Below, piece after piece: positions 6,106 through 52,279 of a DNA stretch of 64,000 bases. The position numbers and the translations under genes were made by a program. Each line of letters opens with the position of its first letter. The first letter of the stretch is position 1. The notes below the pieces were generated by a model. The model was not told where the DNA came from and made no database searches. It saw only the letters and a list, made by a program, of their open reading frames with translations. Source of the DNA: Octopus vulgaris (lineage: Eukaryota). Where the stretch lies: assembly GCA_951406725.2 (NCBI GenBank), contig OX597814.1, forward strand, positions 22,816,001 to 22,880,000, given 5' to 3'.

Positions 6106-7141
6106 CAGCTCCGTTGCATGATTTTCAGAGGCCCCCTGCAACTTTTTGTTTCGAGGCCATATCCCTTCAATCAAAATTCATAATCTATGCACCTTTTATT
6201 GACAACTGTATTTTACTTTATTCTCTCTGAAATTCAATATTTCATGTTATCCTAAAGAACATCTTTAAAAGTACAAGTTAAATTTATTTAGGTCTATTAC
6301 AAATTTCAATAGGTAAAACTTCCAGATATGAATAAAAGAGCACTTTTATAATCCAGGCAACTTTCAAAGACAAACACAGTGCTCTTTATGCTTTGCAAAA
6401 TCATTGATCAGTTCAAAATAATCAAGCTGAGAGCTAAGCTCGTGTTCAATAGATGTCATAGACAATTTACAAAGTCTTGTACACATCTATAGTACAACTT
6501 TTTTACTCTTTTACTTGTTTCAGTCATTTCACTGCGGCCATGCTGGAGCACCAACTTTAGTCAAGGAAATCGACCCCAGGACTTATACTTTGTAAGCCTA
6601 GTACTTATTCTATCGGTCTCTTTTTGCCGAACCGCTAAGTTACGGGGACATAAACAGACTAGCATTGGTTGTCAAGCGATGTGAGGGGGGGGGCAAATAC
6701 AGACACATAAACACACACACATATATATATACATATACATATATACGACGGAATTCTTTCAGTTTCTGTCTACCAAATCCACTCACAAGGCTTTGGTCGG
6801 CCCAAGGCTATAGTAGGAGACACTTGCCCAAGTTTCCACACAGTGGGACTGAACCCAGAAGCATGTGGTTGGTAAGCAAGCTACTTACCACACAGCCACT
6901 TCTGCACCTATGTAAAAATATTACAATGTGATATTTTTACAAGAACTTTGCAGGTATGTTGTATTACCATTTTATTTCTTGAAATTTGCTGTTAACACAG
7001 GTAGTTTAATTCTCATTCAACATCTTAACTGAAGTAAATAGGTGGCTCATCTATGTACTTCGATCTTAACATATGGCCCCCTCAATTGTGGGTGGCCCCC
7101 TGTGTGACTGCAGGGATTGCATGAGCTTAGTGGCGGCCCTG
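6106..7141 (-). mobile_element. Non-autonomous hAT DNA transposon relic with 8-bp TSD
   Basis: TSD AAAGCACC at 6098-6105 and 7142-7149; ends CAGCTCCG and CGGCCCTG. Minus-strand translation at ~6390-6480 (TRLCKLSMTSIEHELSSQLDYFELINDFAKHK) resembles the hAT transposase C-terminus. Confidence 0.75.
6501..6910 (-). mobile_element. SINE family A, full length, inserted inside the hAT relic
   Basis: Reverse complement of the 10391-10848 copy, including the tRNA-like head and gggcaagtg CORE-like motif. Confidence 0.9.
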
Positions 7142-7372
7142 AAAGCACCCATGCTAGTGCCATGCAATGGCACTGGTGCTGGTTCCATGTAAAAAGCACC
7201 TAGATTACTCTCTTAAGTGGTTGGCATTAGGAAAGGCATTCAGTCTTAGAAACCATGTCAAATCGGACAATTGGAATCTGGTGGAGCTCTCCAGCCGGCC
7301 AGCACTTGTTGAACCATCCAAATCATGCCAGAAAAGAAAACAGTCATTAAATGATCATAATAATGTTGATGA

Positions 7373-7375
<3 letters not shown>
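7142..7375 (+). mobile_element. SINE-like family C, 3' part (5' part at ~5980-6105)
   Basis: aaaaagcacc...gtggttggcattaggaa.ggcat.cag...catgc..g.aaa...ttaaatgat tail. Confidence 0.75.
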
Positions 7376-7418
<43 letters not shown>

Positions 7419-7679
7419 TAATATAATAACGGGCATAGTGTTTTTATATATTTGTCCATCCAGAATCACATCGGATGCAGAGGAGGAGAGAAAAAGGTAA
7501 TTCAGTGAAGAAGAAGTAGTGAGAGTAATAGGCCTGACTGAGTGGAAGTGAAAGTAACAGCAATGAGAGAAAGGAAGAGGTGATAGATGAATAAGGAAGG
7601 AAAAAGTGAAAAACAATCAGCATTTCAACTCTGTGTGAGTATGTGTATGTGTGTGTGTACAAGTATTTTTCATCAAGCA

Positions 7680-8796
7680 TATGTCAAGGTGTACTTAATG
7701 TAGTTTTTAATGCTGATTTCAAATATGCAATTAGTTTTTTGGCATCATGTACAGTTTTCAAGATGAGAAGGTTTTTTGGTTTTAGCTCATGCATTATAAA
7801 GAAATTTCAAGTAATGACATGTGTGCATGTATTTCATTTACATCATGGAAACATACCTTTAAAATAAACTACATTATTCATTGCTGCATAGTTCAGATGC
7901 AATATTCCATCATCTTAAATTAACCAATCAAGTTTTGTCTGATGAATTAGGTACCAACATCTCAAATTGTCCAGTCGTAATTGGTCTGGTGAAATATTTC
8001 ATTATCTCAAATTCAGTATAACTAGGGAAGAGAAATACCAGAGAGCTTGGTTATATTGTACAAAAGTTTCCCAAAATCATACAGGCAAAGTTGAATGAGG
8101 GTATCTCTGTCAGACCCCAAATTAGAGATGTACGCAAAGATGTCAACTACAAGACGACACTGGATGAACTGGAACTGCCTGCCTTGTATGCTTTCAACTG
8201 GATCTGTGAGAATTTCTTCAGCAACAAAAAGGCAATGGGCTACAAGGATGGCATCAAAATCTTCTGAAATATTACTCAGCAATGAGTTGTTGCATGTCAC
8301 TGAAAGTCCACTTGTTGGACTCCCATCTGGATTTCTTTGCAGATAACCTTGAAGCAGAGTCTAATGAACATGGTGAAAGACTTCACCTAGACATTAGTGC
8401 TATGGAGAAATGCCAAGGCTTCTGGAATGATAGTATGCTGGTTGACTATTGCTGGACACTTTACTATGATCAACCAGATCAGGAACAAACAGGAAATACA
8501 AATCACAATGTTTCTAATTCAATTGTTCTAACATTGTTTTGTCTGACCCATTTTTTGTGTCGAATGATAGGGATGATTTTCAAGTCAATAAACTCATTTA
8601 CTTTCTAAAAATTATGTGCCTTACGCTAATTATTTCATATATACAAATATGTAAATATTTGCATGTATCTATTGAAAAACTGATACATGTTGCATACAAA
8701 TGGAGTGAAATTTTGAAATCAGCATAAAAAATTAGTCTAAAAATGTTGGTTTGCATTCATAATGAGTATAATACATTTAATCTTTGTTGACCAGTG
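7680..8796 (+). mobile_element. Chapaev3-like (CMC) DNA transposon relic
   Basis: Translations KFPKIIQAKLNEGISVRPQIRD (8063-8130) and MSLKVHLLDSHLDFFADNLEAESNEHGERLHLDISAMEK..QG.W..SML.DYCWTL (8282-8470) match the conserved C-terminus of this transposase group. Right end tttgttgaccagtg|tta; subterminal atgctgatttcaaa is inverted between ~7710 and ~8715. Confidence 0.7.
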
Positions 8797-9112
8797 TTAT
8801 TATGTGCCTAATTTTGTACCTTATATATATATAAAATTCTACAATTAGCTGTCATTATTGATGGCACGTAGTCAGCTGGTATCATATAAGTATGGTGATG
8901 CAAACAGGAAAATTAAAACTCAAAATATGAGTATTCTTTTATTCCTTTATTTGTTTCAGTTATTGGGTAAAAAATTTAAACACAAGGCGATCAAACTATG
9001 TGCCTCTTGTTTATACATCCTAATTCTTTCAAAATCTACTATGCAGATGCAGCCCTTTGCCGGCAATAAAAAATACTAACTTTTAAAACCGAAGATTAAT
9101 CAAACATTTACA

Positions 9113-9592
9113 ATACTTATTCATATCAAAGGGAAATGGAAATTAATTAAAATTCTCATTTCCAGTGAAGGGTTGCATCTGTGCAGTAGATTTTGAAAAA
9201 ATTAGGATGTATAAACAAGAGGCACATAGTTTGATCGCCTCTGTTTTTATATATTTAATGCAAGGTGTTCCTGCTGAGGACGATTTCACCTACCGAGTAT
9301 ATGTTATTTACTTGCTAAACTAAAATCAGAAACCAATTGGTCCAGGAAACTAGATGGTAAAATGTTTTTTATTTTCATTTTGTTCCTGTTGAATTTTATC
9401 CCTGATTTTGTTGTTTTAGAACCTTGCTGTTCTTTCTAGCGTGAGGAATACCATGAGTGGATTCCTCATGTGTTTAAATGTACACTGTATTTTATGACTA
9501 ATACATAGTCTTTTGACTAAAGTTTTACACGTTAGGCCACTGGAAATGAAAATTTTAATTAATTTCCATTTCCCTTTGATACGATTAAGTAT
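9113..9592 (+). mobile_element. HHR-bearing non-coding element (Penelope-like pLTR/retrozyme-type), copy 1
   Basis: 9113-9167 is inverted at 9538-9592, and 8985-9057 is inverted at 9168-9240. Central HHR; sequence downstream of the HHR is colinear with 18010-18146; ends in (TA)n. Confidence 0.6.
9268..9348 (+). ncRNA. Type I hammerhead ribozyme motif, canonical core
   Basis: Helix I TTCCTG(9268-73)/CAGGAA(9343-48); core CTGAGGA (9274-80); helix II GATTT/AAATC with inner CGAGTA/TACTTG; GAAA (9329-32); palindromic helix III ACCAATTGGT; GUC site (C9342). The first helix II pair is a C-A mismatch. Confidence 0.8.
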
Positions 9593-10390
9593 ATATATAT
9601 ATTGATAAATAAATGGATAGGTGGATAGATAGATACATAAGAAAATGAACATTTTGTCTGTCTGCAATAATTTAGTATAAAAAGCTTATACACACAAACA
9701 CACACATGCAATCATACAGACACATACATAATCATCAGTGCATATGTGTGGATGCACACACTCACCCAAACACACACACATGCACACACATGCACTTGCG
9801 CACACACATGCACATGCACACACACACATACACACACACACACAAACATACTTGCTGAAAATGAGTCGAACAATAATAGAAAGAAATATGTTCTTACACT
9901 AATCTGTTTTCCAGAATATTCCATTTTGAAAAAAATAAAAAAATTAAGCATGAAATAAAGAAACGTATTGCATGGAGGAAAGTAATTAAGAATTGCACAA
10001 AGTATAAGTTTAAGACAGTTTTTTTTTAGATATGGTAATTTTATTGGAATACCATTAATTCTATGCTAATTCAGCAAGACTAATATATTGTTCAGTAGCA
10101 AAAATTTCTTTCCATTAAATATTTCAACTCTTAATTAAAATATGTATCATTCTAATTAACAGTTGTTATTAATACAACACTCATATATTCTGTAAAATTA
10201 TATGCTATATCAACATATTGATGGACTCTCTCTGCGCTTGATAACAAAGGTTATGATGTAACAGCAGACAACCAGAGAGATAGGACCCTTACTACAGATT
10301 GAGTGTGATTGCTTTTACCATCACATTTTCCATTTGGCTATTAATACCAAATGTACATCAAAGCAAATCACAGATATAATCTTAAACATA

Positions 10391-10848
10391 GGCGTAGGAA
10401 TGGCTGTGTGGTAAGTAGCTATAGGCGTAGGAGTGGCTGTGTGGTAAGTAGCTTGTTTTACCAACCACATTGGTTCCGGGGTTCAGTCCCACTGTGTGGC
10501 ACCTTGGGCAAGTGTCTTCTACTATTGCCTTGGGACAACCAAAGCCTTGTGAGTGGATTTGGTAGACGGAAACTGAAAGAAGCCCATCGTATATATGTAT
10601 GTATATATATATGTATGCGTGTGTATATGTTTGTGTGTCTGTGTTTGTTCCCCCAACATTGCTTGACAACCGATGCTGGTGTGTTTACATCGCTGTAACT
10701 TAGCATTTCGGTAAAAGAGACCGATAGAATAAGCATTAGGCTTACAAAGAATAAGTCCTGGGGTCAATTTGCTCGACTAAAGGCAGTGCTCCAGCATGGC
10801 CACAGTCAAATGACTGAAACAAGTAAAAGAGTAAAACAAGTAAAAGAG
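10391..10848 (+). mobile_element. SINE family A, full length with duplicated 5' head
   Basis: ggcgtaggagtggctgtgtggtaag (A-box-like, present twice), gggttcagtccc (B-box-like), ccttgggcaagtg CORE-like motif, internal (TA/TG)n, (AGTAAA) tail. Confidence 0.9.
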
Positions 10849-11462
10849 TATACAATGTAATACAGCTACACTACTGATTTTCCAACATCCCAGGTTCCAA
10901 AACCTTGACTGATTAACAGTTTTGCAGAACCATTTTTGGTCATGTAATTATATTTCATCGACACACCTCCAACCTCTTAACCAATGCAGCTACTTTATCT
11001 TGGTTTGATTTGGAGTAGTCCTTACATTTAATTGATGCTCTTAGTTCTCTAGCCTGTAGTGGCTACAGCTAATAATAACCTTAAGCTGAACAAGCAGGAG
11101 ATATCTCAAAATTTTGGTATCACTACTAACAAATTTAGTGTAAATAATGCATGTTAAATGCATGGTTTATACAGTACCTTCTGTAGCCATGCAGTGAAGT
11201 AGACTGGTAGCCATAGGAATGTGAAGTTCCCCCTTGTAATTTACCTGGATTAAAGGAGGTGACAGACTGCTAGAAAATTAGTGCTGTACTGATATATGTG
11301 ATCTTGATTTAACATCAAACCAGTTGCTGTCATAGTTGAGATTTTTTTAACAAGTCTACCCTTTTTTTTTTTGCTAGACTAAGGCAGAATACATGACTTT
11401 TTATGAAGCAATTTTTTGGAAATTTTCCTAAATAATACCTGCCTATTACGATTTACCCTATT

Positions 11463-11562
11463 NNNNNNNNNNNNNNNNNNNNNNNNNNNNNNNNNNNNNN
11501 NNNNNNNNNNNNNNNNNNNNNNNNNNNNNNNNNNNNNNNNNNNNNNNNNNNNNNNNNNNNNN
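11463..11562. other. Assembly gap (100 N)
   Basis: Run of Ns. Confidence 0.99.
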
Positions 11563-12576
11563 ACCCTATTACCAGATAATTGTTAGCTATATGTTGGGTT
11601 CATTTGTCCTTTGACATATCTTGCTTTTTCCCCTGATGGCTTTCTGGCAGCCTTCCTCATCAGATTATTCTTGTTAAGGTGTCAGTTTTATTGCCAATGA
11701 CCCAAATCTGTAACAGGTTGTGAAAGATTATATATTATCATTAGCACACAGAGTGACTTTCCATGTATATCATGACTTGCTATATATATTATGCATGTGT
11801 ATATACAACAATGTATACATTAATTAATTGTATGTATATATCAAGAATGACATTTTTGCCTTGTTATTAAACAATTTGGAGCCAATAACACAAGAACATG
11901 TGTGTTTGACAACTGAAAGAATGTGATTTTATCTGAGTTTGGTCTCATCAACTTTGGTGCAGATAAAACTATATGTATCTTCTAAACTTAACTTCTTATG
12001 TCATCATCATCATCATCATCATTTAATGTATGTCTTCTATGCTGACATGGATAGGATGGTTTGATCAGTGTTGGCAAGCTGGAGAGCTGCACCAGGTACC
12101 AGTGTTATTTCACATAAAAATAAATCATCTGATGACACAAATTTAACAATTAAAGTTCAAAGGCAAATATTTCAAATAAGTACTGGTATAACCATGTAGT
12201 CATAGAATTTACTTTTGCTACCTCATAATTTCATATTTGACCTCACTGTACCACACCTTTGTCTAATATATGTTAGTATATATGTTAGTATAGACATGAG
12301 TTAACCAACACTTTGTAACGAATAAGTGGAAATCCTGTGAAAGAATATCATATACTAAATATAATGCATATTCTTGATTTTAGGATCAGTCGACCATATT
12401 TCTGCATGGTGTAAGGAGACAAATAAAAAGTTAAATTCAGGAAAGGCATCTGACTATAAAGTTCTGCCTCAAAAGATTCATTTCCAACCTATTCTAGCAG
12501 GGGAAAGCACACCCAAAAATAATGAAGGTGAAGATATACATACTTATGTATGTATATGTGTGTGTGTGTGTGTGTG

Positions 12577-12622
<46 letters not shown>

Positions 12623-12640
12623 TAGATATATATATACATG

Positions 12641-12686
<46 letters not shown>

Positions 12687-12688
<2 letters not shown>

Positions 12689-13268
12689 AAACCAAATCAA
12701 ATCAGATATCAGAAAGCAGAACCCAAATCGAAGTCGATCAGCATCAATGGAAATTGTAGCTGTGATACCAGTGCCGGTGACAAGTAAGCGAACCGTCCGA
12801 TCGTGGCCGTTGCCAGCGCTGCCCCGACTGGCCTCCGTGCAGGTGGCACGTAAAAAGCACCATCCGTTCATAGCCGTTGCCAGCCTCGCCTGGCCCCCGT
12901 GCCGGTGGCACATAGCACCATCCATTCGTGGCCGTTGCCAGACTCGCCTGACTCCCGTGCCAGTGGCACGTAAAAAGCACCATCCGATTGTGGCCGTTGC
13001 TAGCCTTGCTTGGCCCCCATGCCGGTGGCACGTAAAAAGCACCATCCGTCCGTAGCCGTTTGCCAGCTCTGTCTGGCACCTGTGCGGGTGGCACGTAAAA
13101 AGCACCCACTACACTCACGGAGTGGTTGGCATTAGGAAGGGCATCCAGCCATAGAAACACTGCCAGATCAGACTGGGCCTGATGCAGCCTTATGGCTTCA
13201 CAGACCCCAGTTAAACCGTCCAACCCATGCTAGCATGGAAAGCGGACGCTAAATGATGATGATGATGA
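12687..13268 (+). mobile_element. SINE-like family C with internal ~62-bp hairpin minisatellite and (GAT)n tail
   Basis: AAATC-rich start, six GTGCCGGTGGCACGTAAAAAGCACC-type units, conserved 3' body ggttggcattaggaagggcatccagc...catgctagcatggaaagcggacg..aaatgatgat. Confidence 0.85.
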
Positions 13269-13294
13269 TATATATATAGATATACATGTATATG

Positions 13295-13349
<55 letters not shown>

Positions 13350-13354
<5 letters not shown>

Positions 13355-15620
13355 TCGGGGTGAGTACTTGATAATTATAAGCACCTGTGTATACCGTTTG
13401 GTGGTGTAGGTGGTGGAGTAAATTGGTCAAAATAAAAACATGATGCGAAGGATTCAGCGGTACATATGTTTCGGGCCTTTATTAGACAGATTTATAACAA
13501 TGCATAATGTATGTCTGTGGCCTTCTTCAGCCGCGCACAACAGCTTCCACAAGGACATGTGTTACATCAAAAATTCTTGGTTGGGGATGCAAATCCTCTC
13601 ATTCGCGTACGACATAATGCGGCAGCAGCATAGAATTGAAGCGTCCATCTCTTTCTTCTCTCAATGTAGAATGAGGAAATTTGGATGTTGAAGTAATGTA
13701 AATAAATAAATACATATATAGACGTGAAGATGGAGGGGCGAGAATTCAGGACGTGGGATAAAAAATGTATAAAAAGTGTAAGTATAGAAAAATATAAAAA
13801 TGTAGAGTATAAAGATATAAAGGGATATAAGGAGATGTCAAGGGGGTATAAAGAATATAAAGAAATATAAATAAATATAAATAAATGTAAAGGCATAAGG
13901 TTATAAAGTAAAAATAGAAATAGAAATAAAAGTAAAAAGTAAAAAAAAAGTAATAAAAAAATAAAAAAAGGAATAAACATGATAAAAATGTAAAAAAATA
14001 TAAAGATAAGGGATGTATAGAGGTTACGGACCAAACATGGTGGTCAGGAGATTGATAAAATTTAGTTGTAGAAGTTTTGGGTGTCAATAAATCAACAGTG
14101 TCGTCTGGGGACCTAATGTGTTGTAAATCAGAGCTGTTGAGCGTTTAATCTGGTTCTTTGAATTAATTGGTCATCTAGTACATACATACCATCATGGATA
14201 CATACACCCATATACACGCGTACATATACGCCTCCAAGCCTATAAGCATACACACGCACTCACGTGTAAACATGTACATAAACACACACACACCCACACG
14301 CACGCGCGTACATATACATACATACAACAGAATATCCGCATGTATACACGGACATTATACGTGTACACACCCATATGTACATACGTGCGCCCATCCTTAC
14401 ATACACATACGCATATGCCCACGCTTCCAGGTTTAGATATAAGATATTAAAGGATGTATATAAGAACGTATGTAAAGAATCACGCACTCACGTCTACACG
14501 TGCACGCACACACGGCTGTGTGTCCATATGTGCGTGCACATATACACTTACATACACACACAGAGACATACGCGCATATGGGTATAGCTATAAGATATTA
14601 AAAGATGTATACAAATAGGTGTAAACATATGAATATAAGAAAACATGTAAAAAAAAGAAATACGGGGTATGTACATCCAGACGTAGATGTTTACTCGTAC
14701 ATATGTACATATATGTATACGTATACATACGTACACGGACGCTCGTATAATCATAAAGTGGATCCATAGGTAAGTAAATAAGGGATAAGTAAAAAAATAG
14801 ACATATATAGAGATATAAAGCGATAACTTAGGGGTAAGAATGAGGGTAAGGGTAAAAATTAGAAATAAAATTAAAGTAAGAAATACAGTATAAAATAAGA
14901 ATAAGAAATGCAATGTAAAAGTTAGAAATGAAATATAAAAATTATAAAAATTATAAGAATTAAGATAAGGGATGAAAATAAAAATGAGAATAAATCGAAG
15001 TAGAATAAAAGTAAAAATAAAAGTAAAAATAAAAATAAAAATAAAATAAAATAAAATAAAAATATAATTTGGTAAAGTTTAACATGAGATGAAGGTGATT
15101 GAAAGTTAGAGGTGTGTGTTAAAGGTGCCCACGTAGGGGCGGGCGGGGGGAACTGAAAATTGGAAGGGTGGGAAAAAGAGTTTGGCGGTGTGCGTTCAAC
15201 ATCCGAGTTAGAAATGTGAAAGGGTATAGATATAGGGAAATAAAGAGACTATATAGGAAGGATATGGGTGTAGGAGAAGAAATATGTAGGGGAAAGAAGA
15301 CATATATGGGAGACAAAATTTGTATATATAGGAGGAAAATGCAGGGAAATATATATGCACATACACACACCCACACACCCACACACACACGCACATATAT
15401 ATATATATATACATATACGTACACATATGTGCACATACATATATATACGCACACATATACGCCTATACACGCACATATAGGAAAGCGGGATGTGCTGGAG
15501 CCGACAGGTTGCACCGGGTGGGAGGAGATTGCATGGGGGAGTTGGTATAATAACCTAAGCTTTGTAGTATTTGAAAGTATTAATAAGTTTGTGTATACAG
15601 GATGGTTTGAACTCTGACCT
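13350..15620 (-). mobile_element. Low-complexity ~2.3-kb element ending in an HHR and (TA)n; probable non-autonomous Penelope-like element
   Basis: HHR near its 3' end; CpG-containing unique islands separated by AT/CA-rich expansions; terminates at (TA)n. Boundaries approximate. Confidence 0.4.
13457..13534 (-). ncRNA. Type I hammerhead ribozyme motif, canonical core, long helix II
   Basis: Minus strand reads GCGG CTGAAGA aGGCC..AGACA..TGTCT..GGCCc GAAA CATATG TA CCGC. Helix III ACATATGT is palindromic; GUA site. Confidence 0.8.
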
Positions 15621-15635
15621 TTTGTTAATAAGATT

Positions 15636-15852
15636 GTGTTTGTATGTATGTGTATATTTCTGTGCCTGTGTTTGTCTGTCACCATTGCTTGACAACCAAT
15701 GTTGGTGTGCTTATGTCCTCATAACTTAGCAGTTTGGCAAAAGAGACTGATAGAATAAGTACTAAGCATACAAAGAATAAGTCCTAGGGTGAATTTGTTC
15801 GACTAAAACCCCTTAGGGTGGTGCTCCAGCAAGGCCGCAGTCAAATGACTGA
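15636..15852 (+). mobile_element. SINE family A, 3' half
   Basis: Matches 10620-10820. Confidence 0.8.
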
Positions 15853-15870
15853 AGGAAATTGGCAAAAAAT

Positions 15871-15904
<34 letters not shown>

Positions 15905-16295
15905 TACCCAATAACAGCAACCGAGGGTATTGTCAAGGAAGTTTCTTTCAATTGCATTGTTATACAAATACGTTAAGAAGTAGATATACAGTATAATGAA
16001 TACTACTTTGTTTGCAATGAAATGCACAGTAAGGTGGAAGTTATTGGATATAAAATAGTGCTTGCCAGCAGTTTTTTATTATTATACAAGAATTTTCAAA
16101 GGTACCATTAGCTTGGCTTTCTGTTATCTTAGATACCATTATCTTATAAGTTAGTTGCATATTTACTTCTGTGTATGTTATTGTGCGTGTGAGTGTGTTT
16201 AAATGTTTGTATTTGTGTTTGAGTCTTGATTGAGTACACTATTGAGAAACAGCGAACCATGCTGGATCCCTTTATGTTACAAATTTACTTAGCTA

Positions 16296-16512
16296 TGAGG
16301 GGTTGCTGAAAAGTTCCTGGCTTTAAGGGCATCGTGAAAAGTTTGGTTGGAGGCCCAGCCTTCTGAATTCTTTTAGAGGGCTTAGAAAAACTGAAGGAGC
16401 ACTGCAATATGTGTCTGAATCTGAGATGGGTATATGTTGAATAAAATCATAATTAACTAATCCTTCTGTATTTTCTTTTCCACAAAGCCAGGAACTTTCT
16501 AGTACCCCCTTG
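16296..16512. mobile_element. Mariner-derived MITE
   Basis: TIRs tgaggggttgctgaaaagttcctggcttt / aaagccaggaactttctagtacccccttg, preceded by TA; a related partial copy lies at 18331-18450. Confidence 0.75.
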
Positions 16513-16526
16513 TGTGTGTATATATA

Positions 16527-17818
16527 CGAGGGGCGTTCAATAAGTAATGCCCCTGACCCACCTCCCATAGCAGTAGAGCAACGAAACTTGGCACAGTTAT
16601 TAGACTTTTTCTACATAGGAAACACCCAGAGTTATGCATTTCTCCCATTGTTTGATGCAGCTCTGGTGACCGTTTTTGTAGAAGACCCCAGCTTGGTCCT
16701 CCAACCTGAACGTGACTTCAGAAATCAAGGCTGCATCATCTGGGAAAGGCTTTCCTTTCAAAAACAACTTCATGACTGGGAAGAGGTGAAAATCAGAGGG
16801 TTCAAGGTCAGGAAAGTAGGGGGGATGGGGGAGGAGTTCATAGCCATACGCCTATGCTTCTGATCTGGCGACAAGCGAGTTGTGGACCGGAGCGTTGTCC
16901 TGCAGGAGGAGGATGTCTTTGCTGATCTTGCCCCGCCTCTTGATTTTGATAACTTCTCTTAATTTCCTCAAAAGTGAAGCATAATAGGCTCCTGCAATTG
17001 TGGTATCCTTTGCCAGGAAATCTCTCATCACTACTCCGTCCTGGTCCCAGAAGACTGTGAGCATGACCTTGCCAGCAGAGGGCTGCACCCTTGCCTTCTT
17101 TGGAGGGGGTGAGTCACGGTGCTTCCACTGCATTGACTGGACTTTGGTCTCTGGATCATCGTGATGGACCCAGGTTTCATCCTGTGTAATCAGTCTTTTG
17201 AAAAATTTTGACTCATCTTCTTGGCACATCTCCAAATTCACCCTCGAGCACTCAACGCATTCTTGCTTCTGGAAAGGTATGAGCAACCTGGGAATCCATT
17301 TGGCAGACACCTTTTGCATATGCAAATGGTCATGAATGATAGTTTCCACAGACCCGGTACTAATCTTGACCTCATGGGCTATTTGGCGAATAATTATGCG
17401 TCGATCTTCCAAAATGGCAGCCTCAACTTGACGGACAGATGCCTCATCAATGGCAGAAGAGGGCGACCAGATCTGGGAGCTGTTTCCACAGAGTTCCGAC
17501 CATGTTTGAATTCACGATGCCAGCGTTTTACAAGGTCATATGATGGGGCATCATCACCATAAGTTACTTTCATTTCATCAAAAGTCTCCCGTGGTGTGCG
17601 TCCTTTCAAATACAAAAACCGGATCACTGCTCGACACTCAACAGGCTCCATTTCACACTTGACTTTGTTCAAACACCTGTAAATCAGAAACCACAATTAA
17701 TTCAGAGCTGTAATTTGCCACTTACTCTATAGAGATATAAATGATTGCACATGCAAAATTTCAGCTAGATCCAACAACTGCAAGTGGATCAGAGGCATTA
17801 CTTATTGAACGTCCCTCG
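16527..17818 (-). mobile_element. Near-full-length mariner transposon (1292 bp)
   Basis: TIRs CGAGGGGCGTTCAATAAGTAATGCC / GGCATTACTTATTGAACGTCCCTCG, TA on both flanks, transposase inside. Confidence 0.95.
16600..17651 (-). pseudogene. Mariner D,D34D-type transposase pseudogene (irritans/Himar-like)
   Basis: MEPVECRAVIRFL...WIPRLL...QDETW...SAGKVMLTVFWD...QDNAPVH...HPPYFPDLEPSDF. One frameshift near 17400-17460 and an in-frame TAG at 16852-16854. Confidence 0.92.
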
Positions 17819-17820
17819 TA

Positions 17821-18146
17821 TATATTATTAATAAATTCCAAGGTAGCAAAAAAAATTAAGAAAATTTCTTTGCTACCAGTGGTCTAGTGAGAAGGAAAAA
17901 ACTGGTCAATAGACTATATATTATTCATATAAAAATACAGTGTACATTTAAACACATAAGAGATGGCCATTTATTTGCTGAAGATAGCTTGAAACCATGG
18001 TATAGGAAATAGAGGGTAAATGTTTTTATTTTTCATTCCCTTTTGAAATTACCTCTAATAGTGGTTTGGAGTTAAACTACTCCTTCTAGCAGGTTAGATG
18101 TCCTGTTATGGCCATCTCTTATGTGTTTTAATGTACACTGTATTTA
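17821..18146 (+). mobile_element. HHR-bearing non-coding element, copy 2 (same family as 9113-9592)
   Basis: 17933-17970 is inverted at 18108-18145. Shares aaatacagtgtacatttaaacacat and the post-HHR tail with copy 1; ends at (TA)n. Confidence 0.6.
17969..18010 (+). ncRNA. Minimal type I hammerhead ribozyme motif
   Basis: atttatttg CTGAAGA(17978-84) tagctt GAAA CCATGG TA taggaaat. Palindromic helix III ACCATGGT; helix I is G-U rich; helix II is vestigial. Confidence 0.65.
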
Positions 18147-18151
18147 CATAC

Positions 18152-18241
<90 letters not shown>

Positions 18242-18248
18242 ATGTATG

Positions 18249-18284
<36 letters not shown>

Positions 18285-19480
18285 ATTCTTCAAACCAGGA
18301 ACTTTTCAGCACCACTTCATATATATATATATGAAGCGGTGCTGAAAAGTTCCTGGTTTGAAGAATATCAGGAAAAGCCTGGGCAAAGGCCCAAACTTCC
18401 AAGTTCTTTTACAGGGCTTAGAAAAACTGAAGGACCACTGCAATAAGTGCATAAATTTTATCAATTAATTTCTTTGTATAGATCCAACAGAAAGAATAAT
18501 AAATTATTAATATGAGTAATATACAATGGTGGATATTCAGCAATATTGTACCAAAGAAAATTATATTTAACCAATGAAAGTGTTGTCTGTGTGACCATTT
18601 GAAAAGCAAAAATAGCATTCAAATCTCCCTGCCTTAATTCCATCTTTAATGTCGTAGAAAAACAATATATTGGCTAAGGTAGTCTTGGTTATGTACAATA
18701 ACATGGTTACATCTGCATGTCTTTGATCAACCAGGGTTGACCTGGGCATAGAAACAGCAACTACAATAAAATATCTTTAAGACAATACTTCCATGTAAAG
18801 CAGGTAATAGTTTTCAACAGGTTGGCTAAATAATATTAATCAAAGATTACACCTCAACAAGTCTGATGTAATGTACTACAATATAACTTTCTTTCCATTA
18901 AATATAACACGTCAGAATATTAAATGAAAGCCAATATCCGAATAATAATAGACGGTGCATATTTGCAATTCCATAATGGGAATATATTCACAGTTATAAA
19001 CATTCATAGAATTCCAATACACTGTGTTTCATATATATTTAAAATATTTATACCAGATGAATTGAATTCAATTTCTAGTAAAGATAATGGCTACTAATAG
19101 TTCTATTTATTCTGGCTCTAAACTAATATAATTTACCCAAGATTTGAAGATTACATCATAGACACTGCAATGTATCGCTGTTTATTCAGAGAAAAAGAAT
19201 TAAAAGTGTATGTAGTGGGGTGGAGAAGTCTCGGCGTGTGTGGATAAGAGAGTAGAGAATGTGATTGATATGAGGAAAGGGATATAGAAAATAGAGAGAA
19301 CAGAAAGGGGGGGGGATAATGTAAGGAGTTACAACAGGCTGAGAGAAGGAGAAAGAGAAGGAGCAATTAATTAAGTTGAAAGAAAGAGGATTAGCAAGAT
19401 GTAAGAGGTGTAAAAGGGAGACAAGCAAATCAGTGATTAAGAATTCTCTCACTCATACACATACACACATACAAACATGA

Positions 19481-19523
<43 letters not shown>

Positions 19524-19685
19524 TGTCATTCTGTGTGTCGCACAGAAAGACATATGCATGCAAGCATATATACATACAGACAGATATACATATGCATACA
19601 ATACACACATATTCATCACAGGTGCATATGCACATACAGACATATATATACGTGTGTGTGTGTGTGTACATTGAAAGAAAGAGAG

Positions 19686-19724
<39 letters not shown>

Positions 19725-20376
19725 GACATGGGAAAGGAGAAAAGTAGAGGTTGTTGTGAAATATGCTAATTGAATTACTTGCACAATATTAAATACATTG
19801 GAATTAAAAGTAATTTACACTAGAAGTTTCTAACATTAATTGAACATTGATTAAATCATTTTCTTTGCAGCAACCCCTATGAACACTTTCTTCCTTGTAA
19901 CAACAACAACAACTACTACATCATAACATCTACAACAACAAATACAATGAATAACAACAACAACAACAACAACAACGACAACAACGACAACAACGACGAT
20001 GACGACAACAGCAACAACAACAATAAATTTTAATCAGCAAAATGGGTAAGCTGTGGTACTGAACGACTTTATAATGAATTTACATGATATTTTCGAAGTA
20101 GTAGTATAGTTGAGCAATGTTTATGTTATCCAATAGTAGAACGGAAGTTTCAGGATTATTTCAGCAATGTTATCTGTTGTATCTGATCCTAGTTACATTG
20201 AAATTATATTTATATAACATAAAGTATACTAGCCATCTCAATATGGCTAACCACTAAGGGTGGGTGTTACTGTAGCTTTTAGCTCCAGAAGATCATCGTC
20301 TCCAGCTGGCTTTAGGCACACTTTCTGTGTTCTTATGGTATTTGCAAAGGGAGGTCATCCCTCTCTCGCAAACCTA

Positions 20377-20437
20377 AGTGATACGCACGGACTGCAGTTT
20401 CGAGGTATTTGCCTCTTGTCAACGTACGGTAATCACC
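20377..20437 (-). ncRNA. Type I hammerhead ribozyme motif, U3:A8 core variant (left arm)
   Basis: Minus strand reads GTGAT tac CGTACG TTGACAA GAGG caaata CCTC GAAA CTGCAG TC CGTGCG t ATCAC. Confidence 0.75.
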
Positions 20438-20588
20438 GATTTACGATGAAAGGAAGACCTGTTTGCAAATACTTATGGGTTTTTCTTGTAACTTCCGTTA
20501 CTTGCAGACAGTTTTTCAAAATCAGTGGCGGAAGTTACTAGAAAAACCCATAAGTATTTGCAAACAGGTCTTCCTTTCATCGTAAACT

Positions 20589-20649
20589 GGTGATTACCAT
20601 ACGTTGACAAGAGGCAAATACCTCGAAACTGCAGTCCGTGCGTATCACT
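20589..20649 (+). ncRNA. Type I hammerhead ribozyme motif, U3:A8 core variant (right arm)
   Basis: Helix I CATACG/CGTGCG extended by GTGAT/ATCAC; core TTGACAA (20604-10); helix II GAGG/CCTC; GAAA (20625-28); palindromic helix III ACTGCAGT; GUC site (C20636). Confidence 0.75.
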
Positions 20650-21104
20650 TAGGTTTGCGAGAGAGGGATGACCTCCCTTTGCAAATACCATAAGGGCACA
20701 GAAAGTGTGCCTAAAGCCAGCTGGAGACGATGATCTCCTGGGGCTAAAAGCTTCAGTAACACCCACCCTGAGTGGTTAGCCATATTGAGATGGCTAGTAT
20801 ACTTCACGTTGTCAAGCAGTTACTGTTTACATCTCGTTCAGAGATTTATTATTGCTATATTTATATATTTTGCATTCAATTGGTGAACACTACATTCAGT
20901 GGTTACAGATTTCCAATGAGAAGATCACTGGTTCAGTGCATTTTTGATAGTGCAACTGACAGAGGTGTGTCTAAGAATCAGTGCAGAATAAATATCTCAT
21001 GGCTCTTCATTTGTACAATAATAATAAAAAAAAAACATTTTACAATCAAATATGCTTGTCAAAATCCTTTAGTGTCATAATTAAGTGTACTCTACATCAA
21101 ATTA

Positions 21105-22495
21105 TGGAAAAATTTTTGGGGAAAGTTTTCGGTGAAAATTTTCGAAAAATTTTAGGAGAAAAATTCGGTGAAAACTTTCGAAAAATTTTTGGGTAAAATT
21201 TTCGGTGAAAATTTTGGAAAAATTTTTGGGGAAAGTTTTCGGTGAAAATTTTCTAAAAATTTTTGGAGAAAATTTTCGGGTAAAATTTTCCAAAAAGTTT
21301 TGGGGAAAATTTTCGGTGAAAATTTTCAAAAAATTTTCGTGGAAAATTTTCGGTGAAAATTTTGGAAAAATTTTTGGGGAAAATTTTTCGTGAAAATTTT
21401 CGAAAAATTTTTGGGGAAACTTTTCGGTGAAAATATTCGAAAAATACTTCGAGAAAATTTTCGGTGAAAATATTCGAAAAATACTTCGTGAAAATTTTCG
21501 TTAAAATTTTGTTAAAATTTTTGTGAAAATTTTTGTTGGAAATTTTCGGTGAAAATTTACGAAAAATTTTTGGGGAAAATTTTCGTGGAAAATTTTCGGT
21601 GAAAAGTTTGGAAAAATTTTTGGGGAAAATTTTTGGTTAAAATTTACGGTGAAAATATTCGAAAAATATTTCGAGAAAATTTTCGCTGAAAAGTTTTGGA
21701 GAAATTTTCGAAAAATTATTGAGTAAAATTTTCGGTGACAATTTTCGAAAAATTTTTGGGGAAAATTTTCGGTGAAAATTTTCGAAAATTTTCTCCATAA
21801 ATTTTTCCAAAATTTTCAGCGAAAACTTTCCCCAAAACTTTTTCGAAAGTTTTCAGCGAAAATTTTCTCCAAAGATTTTTCCCAAAAAATACTTTGTGAT
21901 TTTTGGAAAATTATTGCCATACTTTGTGATTTTGGCACCGCTGGCTTTCCATACTTTGTGATTTCGGCACCGCTGGCCTTCCATACTTTGTGATTTTGGC
22001 CCCGCTGGTCTTCCATACTTTGTGATTTTGGCACCGCTGGCCATCCATACTTTTTACAAAATTTTCACCGAAAATTTTGCCCAAAAATTTTACCCAAAAT
22101 TTTTTGAAAATTTTCACCGAAAATTTTCTCGAAAAATTTTTCCAGTTTTTTCACCGAAAATTTTCCCCAAAAATTTTTCCAAAATGTTTTGAAAATTTTC
22201 ACCAAAAATTTTACCTGAAAATTTTTCGAAAATTTTCACTTTGTTATTTTGGTACCGTTGGCTTTCCATACTTCATGATTTTGGCACCGCTGGCCTTCCA
22301 TACTTTTTCCACTGAAAATTTTCCCAAAAACTTTTTCGAAAGTTTTCTCGAAAATTTTCACTGAAAATTTCACCAAAAAATTTTTCAAAAATTTTCACCG
22401 AAAACTTTCCCCAAAAATTTTTCGAAAATTTTACCCAACAATTTTCCCCAAAAAATTTTCCCAAAAAATACTTTGTGATTTTTCGAAAATTTTTG
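21105..22495. repeat. Composite satellite block 1 (37-bp and 32-bp units), orientation flips near 21790
   Basis: 37-bp unit GGTGAAAATTTTCGAAAAATTTTTGGGGAAAATTTTC on + up to ~21790, then on -, with 32-bp units on - at ~21890-22050 and ~22240-22305. Confidence 0.9.
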
Positions 22496-22503
22496 GTAGA
22501 TAC

Positions 22504-22565
<62 letters not shown>

Positions 22566-23035
22566 GCATGCATGCATATATGTATGTGTGTGGATGTATG
22601 TATGTATGTACGTATGTATGTATACGACGGACTTCTTTTAATTTCCTCTAGCAAATCCTTACAAAGATTTGGTCGGCCTGAGCGATCACTGAAGACACTT
22701 GCCGAAAGGGATGTTTTTAAAAAGAAATTATTTTAAAACTTAGATAAACCAAGAGCTAAACGTGGTTAGAAATTTTCAGGCTAACCTATCCTGCGATATG
22801 ATGATTGTTTTTCACACCACGTAGAATATAAAAGTAGTGTATAGTACTGATTGACAAGCCCATATGTCATGACTTTCAGCACTCTCTTAAACTATATGTA
22901 TGTTAATGTGTGTGTATGGTTGCATCTATAAATAATAAATAAATAACCATATAAAGCATATGAACGTGAACGTTTGTGAGTGTGTGTGTGTGCGTGTGAT
23001 ATTCTTGTGAAACGATAGCTGAAATAAATACTCAA

Positions 23036-24465
23036 AAAAAAATTTTTGGTAAAATTTACGAAAAATTTTTGGGGAAAATGTTCGGTGAAAATTTTCGAAA
23101 AATTTTTGTGGAAAATTTTCGGTGGAAATTTTCGAAAAATTTTTGTGGAAAACTTTCGGTGAAAGTTTTGGAAAAAGTATGGAAGGCCAGCGGTGCCAAA
23201 ATCACAAAGTATGGCAGGCCAGCGGTGCCAAAATCACAAAGTATGGCAGGCCAGCGGTGCCAATATCACAAAGTATGGAAAGCCAGCAGTGCCAAAATCA
23301 AAGTGAAAATTTTCGAAAGATTTTCGGCGAGAATTTTCGAAAAATTTTTGAGTAAAATTTTCGGTGACAATTTTCGAAAATTATTTGGGGAAAATTTTCG
23401 GTGAAAATTTTCAAAAATCTTTCGTTGAAAATTTTCGAAAAATTTTTGGGTAAAATTTTCGGTGAAAATTTTGGAAAAGTTTTTGGGGAAAATTTTCGAA
23501 AATATTTTCGGGTAAAATTTTCCCTGAAAATTTTCCAAATATTTCTGGGTAAAATTTTGGGTGAAAATTATGGAAAAATTTTTGGGGAAAGTTTTCGGTG
23601 AAAACTTACGAAAAATTTTTGGAGAAAATTTTCAGTGAAAATTTTCGAAAAATTTTTGGGTAAAATTTTCGGTGAAAATTATGGAAAAATTTTTGGGGAA
23701 AGTTTTCGGTGAAAATTTTCGAAGAAGTTTGGGGGAAAATTTTCGTGGAAAATTTTCGGTGAAAACTTTTGAAAAATCTTTGGGGAAAATTTTTGGTGCA
23801 AATTTTCGAAAAATTTTTGGGGAAACTTTTCGATGAAAATATTCGAAACATACTTCCAGAAAATTTTCGGTGAAAATATTCGAAAAAATATTTCCAGAAA
23901 ATTTTCGTTAAAATTTTGGAAAAATTTTTGGGGGAAATTTTCGAAATTTTTTGGGGGAAAATTTTCGGTGAAAGTTTTTGAAAAAGTATGGAAGGCCAGC
24001 GGTGCCAACATCACAAATTACGGAAGGCCACCGGTGCCAAAATCACAAAGTATGGAAGGCCAGCGGTGCCAAAATCACAAAGTATGGCAAAAATTTTCGA
24101 AAAATCAAAGTATTTTTTTGGAAAAATTTTTGGGGAAAATTTTCGAAAAAGTTTTGGGGAAACTTTTCGGTGAAAATTTTCGAAAAATTTCTGGAGAAAC
24201 TTTTCGTTGAAAATTTTTAAAAAATTATGGAAGGCCAGCGGTGCCAAAATGACAAATTATGGAAGGCCACCGGTGCCAAAATCACAAAGTATGGAAGGCC
24301 AGTGGTGCCAAAATCACAAAGTATGGAAAGCCAGCGGTGCCAAAATCACAAAGTGAAAATTTTCGAAAAATTTTTGATTAAAATTTTCGGTGACAATTTT
24401 CGAAAAATGTTTGGGGAAAATTTTTGGTGAAAATTTTCAAAAATTTTTCGTTGAAAATTTTTAAA
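23036..24465 (+). repeat. Composite satellite block 2
   Basis: 37-bp units interspersed with runs of the 32-bp unit GGAAGGCCAGCGGTGCCAAAATCACAAAGTAT (23176-23300, 23986-24090, 24228-24352). Confidence 0.9.
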
Positions 24466-36900: not shown

Positions 36901-37275
36901 TGAAATTTAGAAGAGAAAGGTAAATACCACTAGTGAGTTACAGAACTTTTGAAAGAAGATTTGTGGGTCATTTATTTATCTAAAATGTTAATTTTATCAA
37001 CATTTAAGATGATAGCTGTGATTGCTTCAACAATTTTATCAAGAACAAATAAGTTTTTATTTCAAGGAGTTGCTGTGTGGTAAGTAGCTTACTTACCAAC
37101 CACATAGTTCCGGATTCAGTCTCACTGCATGGAATCTTGGGCAAGTGACTTCTACTATAGCCTCAGGATGACCAAAGCCTTGTGAGTGGATTTGGTAGAG
37201 AGAAACTGAAAGAAGCCCGTCGTATATATATATATATATATATATATATACTTTATTTAAAAGCAGCAGAAATTC

Positions 37276-37328
37276 AACAAAACTTGTTACTCAGAGTTTC
37301 ACGTTCCCATTCGTCGGACAATTTTGTT
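37276..37328 (-). ncRNA. Minimal type I hammerhead ribozyme motif, U4C variant
   Basis: Minus strand reads AACAAAATTGT CCGACGA ATG ggaa CGT GAAA CTCtGAG TA ACAAgTTTTGTT. Confidence 0.7.
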
Positions 37329-37336
37329 AAAATTTT

Positions 37337-37389
37337 AACAAAACTGTCCAATGAATGGGAACGTGAAACTCCGAGTAACAGGTTTTGTT
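37337..37389 (+). ncRNA. Mirror HHR motif with decayed core (CCAATGA, G5A)
   Basis: AACAAAACTGT CCAATGA ATG ggaa CGT GAAA CTCcGAG TA ACAGgTTTTGTT. Confidence 0.55.
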
Positions 37390-37479
37390 GAATTTCTGCT
37401 GCTTTTAAATAAAGCATATTACTCTACCCCTGGTATTTGTGTACTTTTTTTCCACCTTGTTTCACATTTATGTGTTTAC

Positions 37480-51660: not shown

Positions 51661-51684
51661 AAGACCAAAGTTTCCTCTGTCTTA

Positions 51685-51999
51685 GGGTGGAGTGAAAATA
51701 AAAAGTTGTAGAAATTGAAAATGCCTGAGGGGTAAAATGTTGCTATATTTACATACTAGAAAAATGCTATATTTTCACTGAGATCAATCAAGAGTATTTA
51801 CTTCCTCAAGCTCCCAAAACTTCGAAAATGGGGTATTTTGTAGATTTTTTTACAATAGCGGAGTTTGAGGAGTTTGAAGGAGTAAATGCCCATAACTGAT
51901 CTAAGCAAAAATTTAGCATTTTTCTAGTAATAATATATAGCAAGAGTTTAAGCCTCAGGCATTTTAAATTTCCTCAATTTTTTTATTTTCACACCACCA
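51685..51999. mobile_element. Foldback MITE (PIF/Harbinger-like)
   Basis: Imperfect palindrome over its whole length (gggtggagtgaaaataaaaa / tttttattttcacaccacca; aaaatgcctgagg / cctcaggcatttt; actagaaaaatgcta / tagcatttttctagt); TTA and TAA flanks. Confidence 0.75.
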
Positions 52000-52279
52000 T
52001 AACACACATGTATGTGTGAGTGGGTATTTAGATTGTGTAATCTAGGGTGGAGTGAAAATAAACTAGAACAATGTGAAATGAAGTGTTTTGCTCAAGAACA
52101 CATGTCGCCTAGTCTAGGAATTGAAACCACAATCTTATGATCCTGTGTTCAACACTCTAACCACTAAGCCATGCACCTCCATACTAGAACGGAATGAAGT
52201 AAGATTTGCACTTTGACTTCATAAAACCCTCACCAGCCCCGACTACCCAAAATAGACCCTTGGGCTGGAAGGTTCTCAC

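Follow-up and report, generated by a model that had tools for sequence, protein, structure and literature searches.

Hammerhead-bearing ends of Penelope-type elements (PLEs) number in the thousands in animal genomes. In PMC8557442 and PMC3846280 such ends are described as showing an inverted 5'-truncated copy, an optional tail and a bias towards (TA)n. A short intron in a PLE pseudo-LTR and the 75-bp intron in the 5'-UTR of D. virilis Penelope are mentioned in PMC8557442, and the latter ends at the 5' strand of helix I according to PMC4209133. Non-LTR retrozymes are presented in PMC7229834 (Cervera and de la Pena 2020) and bioRxiv 10.64898/2026.07.22.740005 (Li, Clavereau and Pollet) as non-coding tandem derivatives of PLE pseudo-LTRs. 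Regarding the enzyme, the PLE protein of Anolis nicks both target strands where they are AT-rich and extends them; synthesis starts at internal positions of the RNA, and uncut RNA is used (PMC11167929). For cephalopods, PMC13282606 reports genomes containing Penelope families, 31 of them recently active in O. vulgaris, and PMC6962438 reports hammerhead matches, 235 of them in giant squid.

Here, we analysed a locus within a 64-kb window of the Octopus vulgaris genome (the window being the whole stretch of DNA under study). In our judgement 9168-9592 together with ~8963-9167 is fairly probably an old insertion of a ~480-nt repeat unit that is non-coding and stems from Penelope elements, a pseudo-LTR derivative with the organisation of an animal non-LTR retrozyme, and the element family as a whole would be classed as a retrozyme-like PLE pseudo-LTR derivative of the non-LTR kind. 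The link of the ~480-nt unit to PLEs is one of architecture alone. The locus is largely ordinary, its one unusual extra being a possible intron directly behind the hammerhead cut site. Its features are as follows:

8963..9167, reverse strand: inverted 5'-truncated piece, its end between 8963 and 8985 being uncertain; in element sense it runs from the last 55 nt of the unit (9167-9113) over the head-to-tail point 9113/9112 into 55 nt termed X (9112-9058), then 73 nt termed A (9057-8985), and probably on to ~8963
9167..9168, no strand: single inversion junction, with 1 nt of exact and a few nt of imperfect microhomology
9168..9592, forward strand: 5'-truncated piece of 425 nt
9268..9348, forward strand: type I hammerhead motif with a long unbranched helix II, a palindromic helix III and a predicted cut after C9342
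9357..9439, forward strand: candidate spliceosomal-type intron of 83 nt (GTAAAA, CTGAT at 9402, pyrimidines, TAG)
9465..9492, forward strand: block with the highest conservation in the family, directly behind which a second copy has the end of its forward piece
9542..9573, forward strand: 3' hairpin, ~20 nt before the main 3' end; the second copy has one there with another stem sequence
9590..9601, forward strand: (TA)6 at the main 3' end, probably target

Part of 8700-9600 was found in 20 of the 24 public sequencing runs listed, none of which contained more than 40% of its words. Four runs (three DNA-like and one guessed to be RNA; contigs throughout) were aligned to 8800-9690 at 80% likeness, and the results listed for them comprise 40 of 140 variant rows, 19 distinct joints (15 of 30, plus 4 more), 24 of 868 loose ends and 32 of 8496 pieces. 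The three DNA-like runs gave 2776, 1954 and 3340 matching contigs, totals that include an unrelated abundant repeat at 8920-8979, and within the element up to 72-78 contigs stand behind single variant rows. The element is thus a multicopy family, with further copies seen in the contigs of all three DNA-like runs. Summed depth within it is highest at 9460-9489 in all four runs, and an exact search with the conserved 25-nt block returned 0 matches in metagenome contigs and 0 in viral contigs. Eight of the 19 distinct joints listed connect the inverted part, at 9046-9153, with the forward part, at 9158-9507, in one contig each, and other copies therefore have like junctions at other places. The guessed-RNA run, which may contain DNA, has contigs over 9086-9142 and 9310-9581 and none over 9160-9309, and so counts neither in favour of expression nor against it. 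There was no empty-site joint among the 19 joints listed, rows 9583-9690 having been skipped as repeats, no tandem dimer of the unit in the 64-kb window, and none of the listed contigs, which are short, spans the whole unit. An initial annotation had proposed a Penelope-type insertion of a structured RNA, and this is supported by the multicopy family together with an architecture matching that described in PMC8557442 and PMC3846280; the structured nature of the RNA is borne out by 9268-9592, which folds better than 200 of 200 shuffles (z -3.4).

Both inverted pairs reported initially are present, 8985-9057/9168-9240 with 5 mismatches in 73 positions and 9113-9167/9538-9592 with 3 in 55, and the outer arm extends probably to ~8963/9263, where mismatches are more frequent. 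The forward piece is covered by overlapping paralogue contigs (9170-9318, 9170-9351, 9203-9385, 9319-9494 and 9417-9581), and the inverted piece by paralogue contigs at 8994-9136 and 9000-9135, with 22 other letters each. Because paralogous contigs are continuous through 8994-9136 and 9170-9351, 8985-9112 and 9168-9267 are element sequence, and because such contigs cross the arm 9168-9240 uninterrupted, this arm is the natural sequence before the hammerhead. One junction at 9167/9168 therefore explains both inverted pairs, and the multiple template switches that had been postulated are unneeded given this continuity of the paralogues. The junction is not an assembly artefact, since in run X3 one contig extends across 9017-9203 with 1 other letter and 1 gap. 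At the point between X and the end of the unit, the overlap in two listed pieces is only 23-24 aligned nt, below the 31-nt rule applied; the variant rows 9105/9107, with 7-20 contigs per DNA-like run and lying up to 43 nt from the contig end, likewise point to 8985-9112 continuing into the 3' end of the element. The unit closes as a ring of X, A, hammerhead, body, 3' hairpin and again X (425 + 55 = 480 nt), in which there is no long ORF, and the interleaving of the inverted pairs follows from a tandem or circular template. One event and one template lineage are indicated by the T that both A arms share at 9048, where the paralogue majority is C (373/485, 232/266 and 791/908), and by the equal divergence of the two arm pairs (5/73 and 3/55).

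An alternative explanation, unlikely in our view and itself retaining the single junction, is that the pieces represent the ends of an autonomous PLE with two tandem pseudo-LTRs in its master copy; the 480-nt ring would then belong to a longer element and would not be mobile on its own. PLEs typically form partial tandems (PMC8557442, PMC3846280), and the summed depth in the three DNA-like runs falls ~10-fold 5' of 9310, a drop that 5' truncation would produce, as would subfamilies that differ in their upstream part; one loose end of 7 contigs before 9310 has such a different upstream sequence. However, no coding remnant adjoins any piece, and A, which follows the 3' end at a distance of 55 nt and precedes the hammerhead by 27 nt, is separated from neither by an ORF. 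Six frames of 7001-21402 contained no RT or GIY-YIG remnant by Pfam, which found only two mariner domains, and for the 51-residue open frame at 9168-9320 none of 8 candidates among longer proteins was retained at E up to 1. The single match of this frame in 1.84 billion representatives was rejected, being an unnamed tandem-repeat ORF aligned in seven weak stretches (best, 9 of 14 identities).

Alignment of the locus with 17821-18146 revealed a diverged second copy, 67-72% identical and of like layout:

17826..17970, reverse strand: inverted 5'-truncated piece, equivalent to ~9455-9592 (72% over 142 columns)
17971..18146, forward strand: forward 5'-truncated piece, equivalent to ~9306-9492 (67% over 206 columns)

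The alignment score of its forward piece exceeded that of 1000 of 1000 shuffles. This piece carries the hammerhead 3' half and the intron-like stretch, followed by (TACA)n(TA)n, and the inverted piece reaches ~100 nt further 3' than the forward piece, at a (TA)n site, where it adjoins the TA end of a mariner element. The mariner element (16520-17825) is frameshifted, with Pfam matches to Transposase_1 and HTH_48 and 42-nt inverted ends. A CTGAAGA at 17978 was considered as a minimal hammerhead core and is a doubtful one; of the 4 pairs in its weak helix I, 3 are G.U or terminal, it does not fold as a hammerhead, and it aligns with the 3' strand of helix II of the locus copy.

The surrounding window is AT-rich, animal-type DNA, rich in microsatellites. 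At ~7700-8800, decayed DNA-transposon-like ORFs (8022-8608), with no Pfam match, lie between inverted 23-mers at 7701-7723 and 8712-8734, and 21025-24350 is a long AT-rich satellite with units of 11-13 nt in both orientations. Foldback elements occur at 18281-18370 (98% self-complementary), 37246-37419 (93%) and 51678-52006 (75%), the first two in or beside (TA)n, and the hammerhead motif scan found no site in any of the three. A second, unrelated hammerhead family is represented by a type I motif at 13455-13536 on the reverse strand, with a 4-bp helix I, a CTGAAGA core at 13530, a 51-nt helix II with A.C at its base (10.1/11.1 unpaired) and an 8-nt palindrome, and with a (TA)n end ~110 nt later. 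At 20216-20810, inverted 287-nt arms that are 95% alike, with their 3' ends outward, constitute a third Penelope-type family, and each arm has a clean U3-A8 hammerhead (TTGACAA, at 20422 on the reverse and 20604 on the forward strand) with a G10.1-C11.1 pair. The 3'-ends-outward layout is common to our locus, its second copy and the unrelated family at 20216-20810.

In the locus copy, the perfect 6-bp helix I described initially pairs TTCCTG 9268-9273 with CAGGAA 9343-9348 (6 of 6 pairs), and the core CTGAGGA at 9274-9280, the 10-nt palindrome of helix III at 9332-9341 and the GUC site (GTC 9340-9342) were found as described, as was a GAAA box at 9329-9332. Helix II does occupy 48 nt between the core boxes (9281-9328); it is not branched, as had been claimed, and consists of two stacked stems with an internal loop between them. 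Among the type I characters, C3UGANGA9, G12AAA15.1, U16.1-H17, three helices and an open helix I are present, and the G10.1-C11.1 pair adjoining the core is lacking, the base of helix II being a C9281.A9328 mismatch with a G-C pair one step further out. This pair is highly conserved in hammerheads according to PMC4209133. The term canonical, used in the initial annotation, does not hold for a motif without this pair, without an Rfam match and with a hammerhead fold that is not the minimum-energy one. Rfam gave no hammerhead at gathering score across the window (0 matches), nor any among the 88 matches over 8400-18600 at E up to 10. As it stands, 9262-9354 adopts the hammerhead fold at -12.5 to -14.1 kcal/mol, against a minimum of -14.6 kcal/mol (0.5-2 above the minimum), and the folding of 9255-9365 is no better than that of shuffles (z 0.07). 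Nevertheless, the motif itself is far above chance. A scan for CTGA.GA, GAAA, a palindromic helix III and TH with a helix I of at least 3 bp found 3 sites in the 64-kb window versus a mean of 0.09 in 300 block-wise dinucleotide shuffles, and a site as strict as 9268-9348 (helix I of 6, palindrome of at least 8) was found in 0 of the 300. Single copies in which helix III is palindromic are expected to cleave inefficiently (PMC4209133, PMC7229834), and in bioRxiv 10.64898/2026.07.22.740005 cutting was absent in 8 of 9 tested Xenopus dimers; the lone copy at 9268-9348 is probably inert.

At the family level, G is the majority letter at 9293 (611/626, 547/573 and 1699/1809 of the depth in the three DNA-like runs, 94-98%), and with this G helix II is lengthened and the hammerhead becomes the minimum-energy fold (-20.7). 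Two copies co-fold via the palindrome as a dimeric hammerhead at -36.2, versus 2 x -12.5. At 9274 (core position 3), T is found in most of the overlapping paralogue depth (811/1198, 451/889 and 2211/2539, 51-87%); a U3-A8 variant is known in Schistosoma PLEs (PMC4209133) and also occurs within the window at 20422/20604. At 9269, A is found in most paralogue depth (796/1171, 596/991 and 2214/2398) and by itself lowers helix I pairing from 0.85 to 0.37, breaking a pair unless 9347 changes too. No compensating change at 9279 (position 8) or 9347, and no change at 9281 or 9328, occurs among the 40 of 140 variant rows listed, an absence that decides nothing because the expected rows 9043 and 9052 are also absent there. 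GAAA and the 3' strand of helix I are retained in the second copy, whose palindrome has another sequence. These observations also bear on the proposal that the locus is some other sort of repeat (SINE-like, MITE-like or a foldback arising at the DNA level) with a chance or dead hammerhead motif made canonical-looking by changes in the locus copy. Such a reading would fit the minority status of C3 in paralogue depth, the missing G10.1-C11.1 pair and the missing Rfam match, but we regard it as highly improbable, because chance would yield the motif in fewer than 1 of 300 windows, a copy only 67% identical retains its 3' half with a different palindrome, the family letters strengthen helix II, and the 5' truncation and inversion point to reverse transcription.

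Turning to the 3' end, the (TA)n ending reported initially is indeed there, and the site agrees with the AT-rich or (TA)n targets of PLE ends, at which target-site duplications are short or absent. There is no clear target-site duplication here, the longest word common to the two boundaries being 5 nt. Directly left of the insertion, 8932-8964 is the first 33 nt of a very abundant dispersed repeat whose continuation is absent on the right, and target DNA may therefore have been lost. All three short 3' hairpins of the initial annotation were recovered (9443-9467, 9506-9519 and 9542-9573). The first of them, the GAGGAAT..ATTCCTC stem, is partly special to the locus copy, most paralogue depth differing at 9444, 9445 and 9467. 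The hairpin at 9542-9573 starts at the same GG in both copies, and 4 of its 7 pairs are changed on both sides when the copies are aligned by structure; RNAalifold on a plain alignment of the two copies did not recover it, the 3' arm being placed one step off, and DNA-level palindrome correction could give a like hairpin picture.

By analogy with the Anolis PLE protein (PMC11167929), the layout would be explained if both strands of an AT-rich target had been cut by the reverse transcriptase/endonuclease of a PLE, supplied in trans. The first strand would then prime cDNA at the main start site behind the 3' hairpin and yield 425 nt, through an uncut or religated hammerhead; on a template that is tandem or circular, the second would prime at a point ~150 nt further on and yield ~205 nt; and the two cDNAs would be joined at their truncated ends at 9167/9168. 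The shorter piece crosses the head-to-tail point and so repeats both ends of the longer piece, giving two interleaved inverted pairs, and as the forward piece spans the cut site the template was uncut or religated. If the hammerhead is active at all, two copies would most likely pair through the palindromic helix III and, as such a dimer, trim tandem transcripts to the length of one unit. On this reading, the locus preserves the trace of a tandem or circular template exceeding one unit and of another priming site ~150 nt from the main one, which bears on how the inverted ends and tails of PLEs arise. Several template switches during insertion, with A and X as host flank copied back on itself, is the least probable of the readings and largely refuted, for although the junction has imperfect microhomology and 6 of the 19 joints listed end at 9447-9459 inside a hairpin (structure may steer switch points, and alignment ends near the conserved block could cluster likewise), A and X both occur in many copies and, in paralogues, adjoin the hammerhead and the 3' end without a break.

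The intron-like stretch starts 14 nt behind the cut site C9342, and at 9402 the family letter gives CTAAT. Like intron signals occur in the second copy at 18016-18089 with indels between, so that both of the two copies have them. Of 5000 shuffles each, 0.16% and 0.52% match the pattern, which was defined after seeing both copies; for 10000 positions in the window the figure is 0.09%. No spliced joint is among the 19 joints listed, and in the guessed-RNA run, which may contain DNA, contigs are unspliced across 9439. A frame of 22-24 codons behind the intron, with a common TAG stop in both copies, was rejected as a gene, its conservation being at the nucleotide level. We consider it doubtful, but worth stating, that the family is an intron-bearing retrozyme, in which the hammerhead of the 480-nt unit would cut 14 nt before a real 83-nt intron, and the cleaved, circularised RNA would keep this intron and be reverse-transcribed. 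In general, a cap favours splicing of the first intron. Cleavage would leave an uncapped 14-nt first exon, which would be spliced poorly, and the intron would be kept in the circularised RNA. If true, an intron-bearing retrozyme would provide a concrete mechanism, and a minimal natural substrate, for the unexplained intron retention of PLEs, and if the stretch is truly spliced, the family would offer a small, protein-free system for studying how self-cleavage and splicing compete.

The locus itself is of little weight, with three unrelated hammerhead families within one 64-kb window. In the open-licence literature, exclusive of repeat libraries, we found neither the ~480-nt octopus family nor an intron inside a retrozyme unit described; the PLE consensus files of PMC8557442 or the repeat library of PMC13282606 may already list the family.

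Among known systems, the non-autonomous Chlamys element MRC1, as portrayed in PMC8557442, is likewise a non-coding PLE derivative with pseudo-LTRs and head-to-tail insertions; the Chlamys elements differ in being green algal and mostly without canonical hammerheads. With the pseudo-LTR ends of EN+ PLEs (Penelope/Poseidon, Neptune, Hydra), the locus shares a type I hammerhead with a palindromic helix III and a long helix II, an inverted 5'-truncated copy beside a forward copy (in the locus, the second copy and the paralogue joints), staggered 3' ends, an AT-rich or (TA)n target and a short intron-like stretch near the ribozyme. It differs from an autonomous EN+ PLE in that no telomerase-like RT and GIY-YIG ORF was found in 7001-21402, from the published PLE tail (30-40 nt) in the 3' offsets of the locus family (~100 and ~150 nt), from the D. 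virilis Penelope intron, which ends at the 5' strand of helix I, in the position of the intron-like stretch behind the cleavage site, and from EN+ PLE hammerheads, with their G10.1-C11.1 pair, in the C.A at the base of helix II in the locus copy. Compared to non-LTR retrozymes, the locus is an inverted pair of partial units, with no dimer or array in the window, and carries a candidate intron inside the unit, a feature reported for none of the units in the published portions consulted. In line with animal non-LTR retrozymes as characterised in those portions, it has a unit that is non-coding, low in GC, a few hundred nt long and equipped with a single type I hammerhead, is multicopy, and shows head-to-tail continuity and dispersed partial copies, its ~480 nt lying within the reported 51-972 bp.
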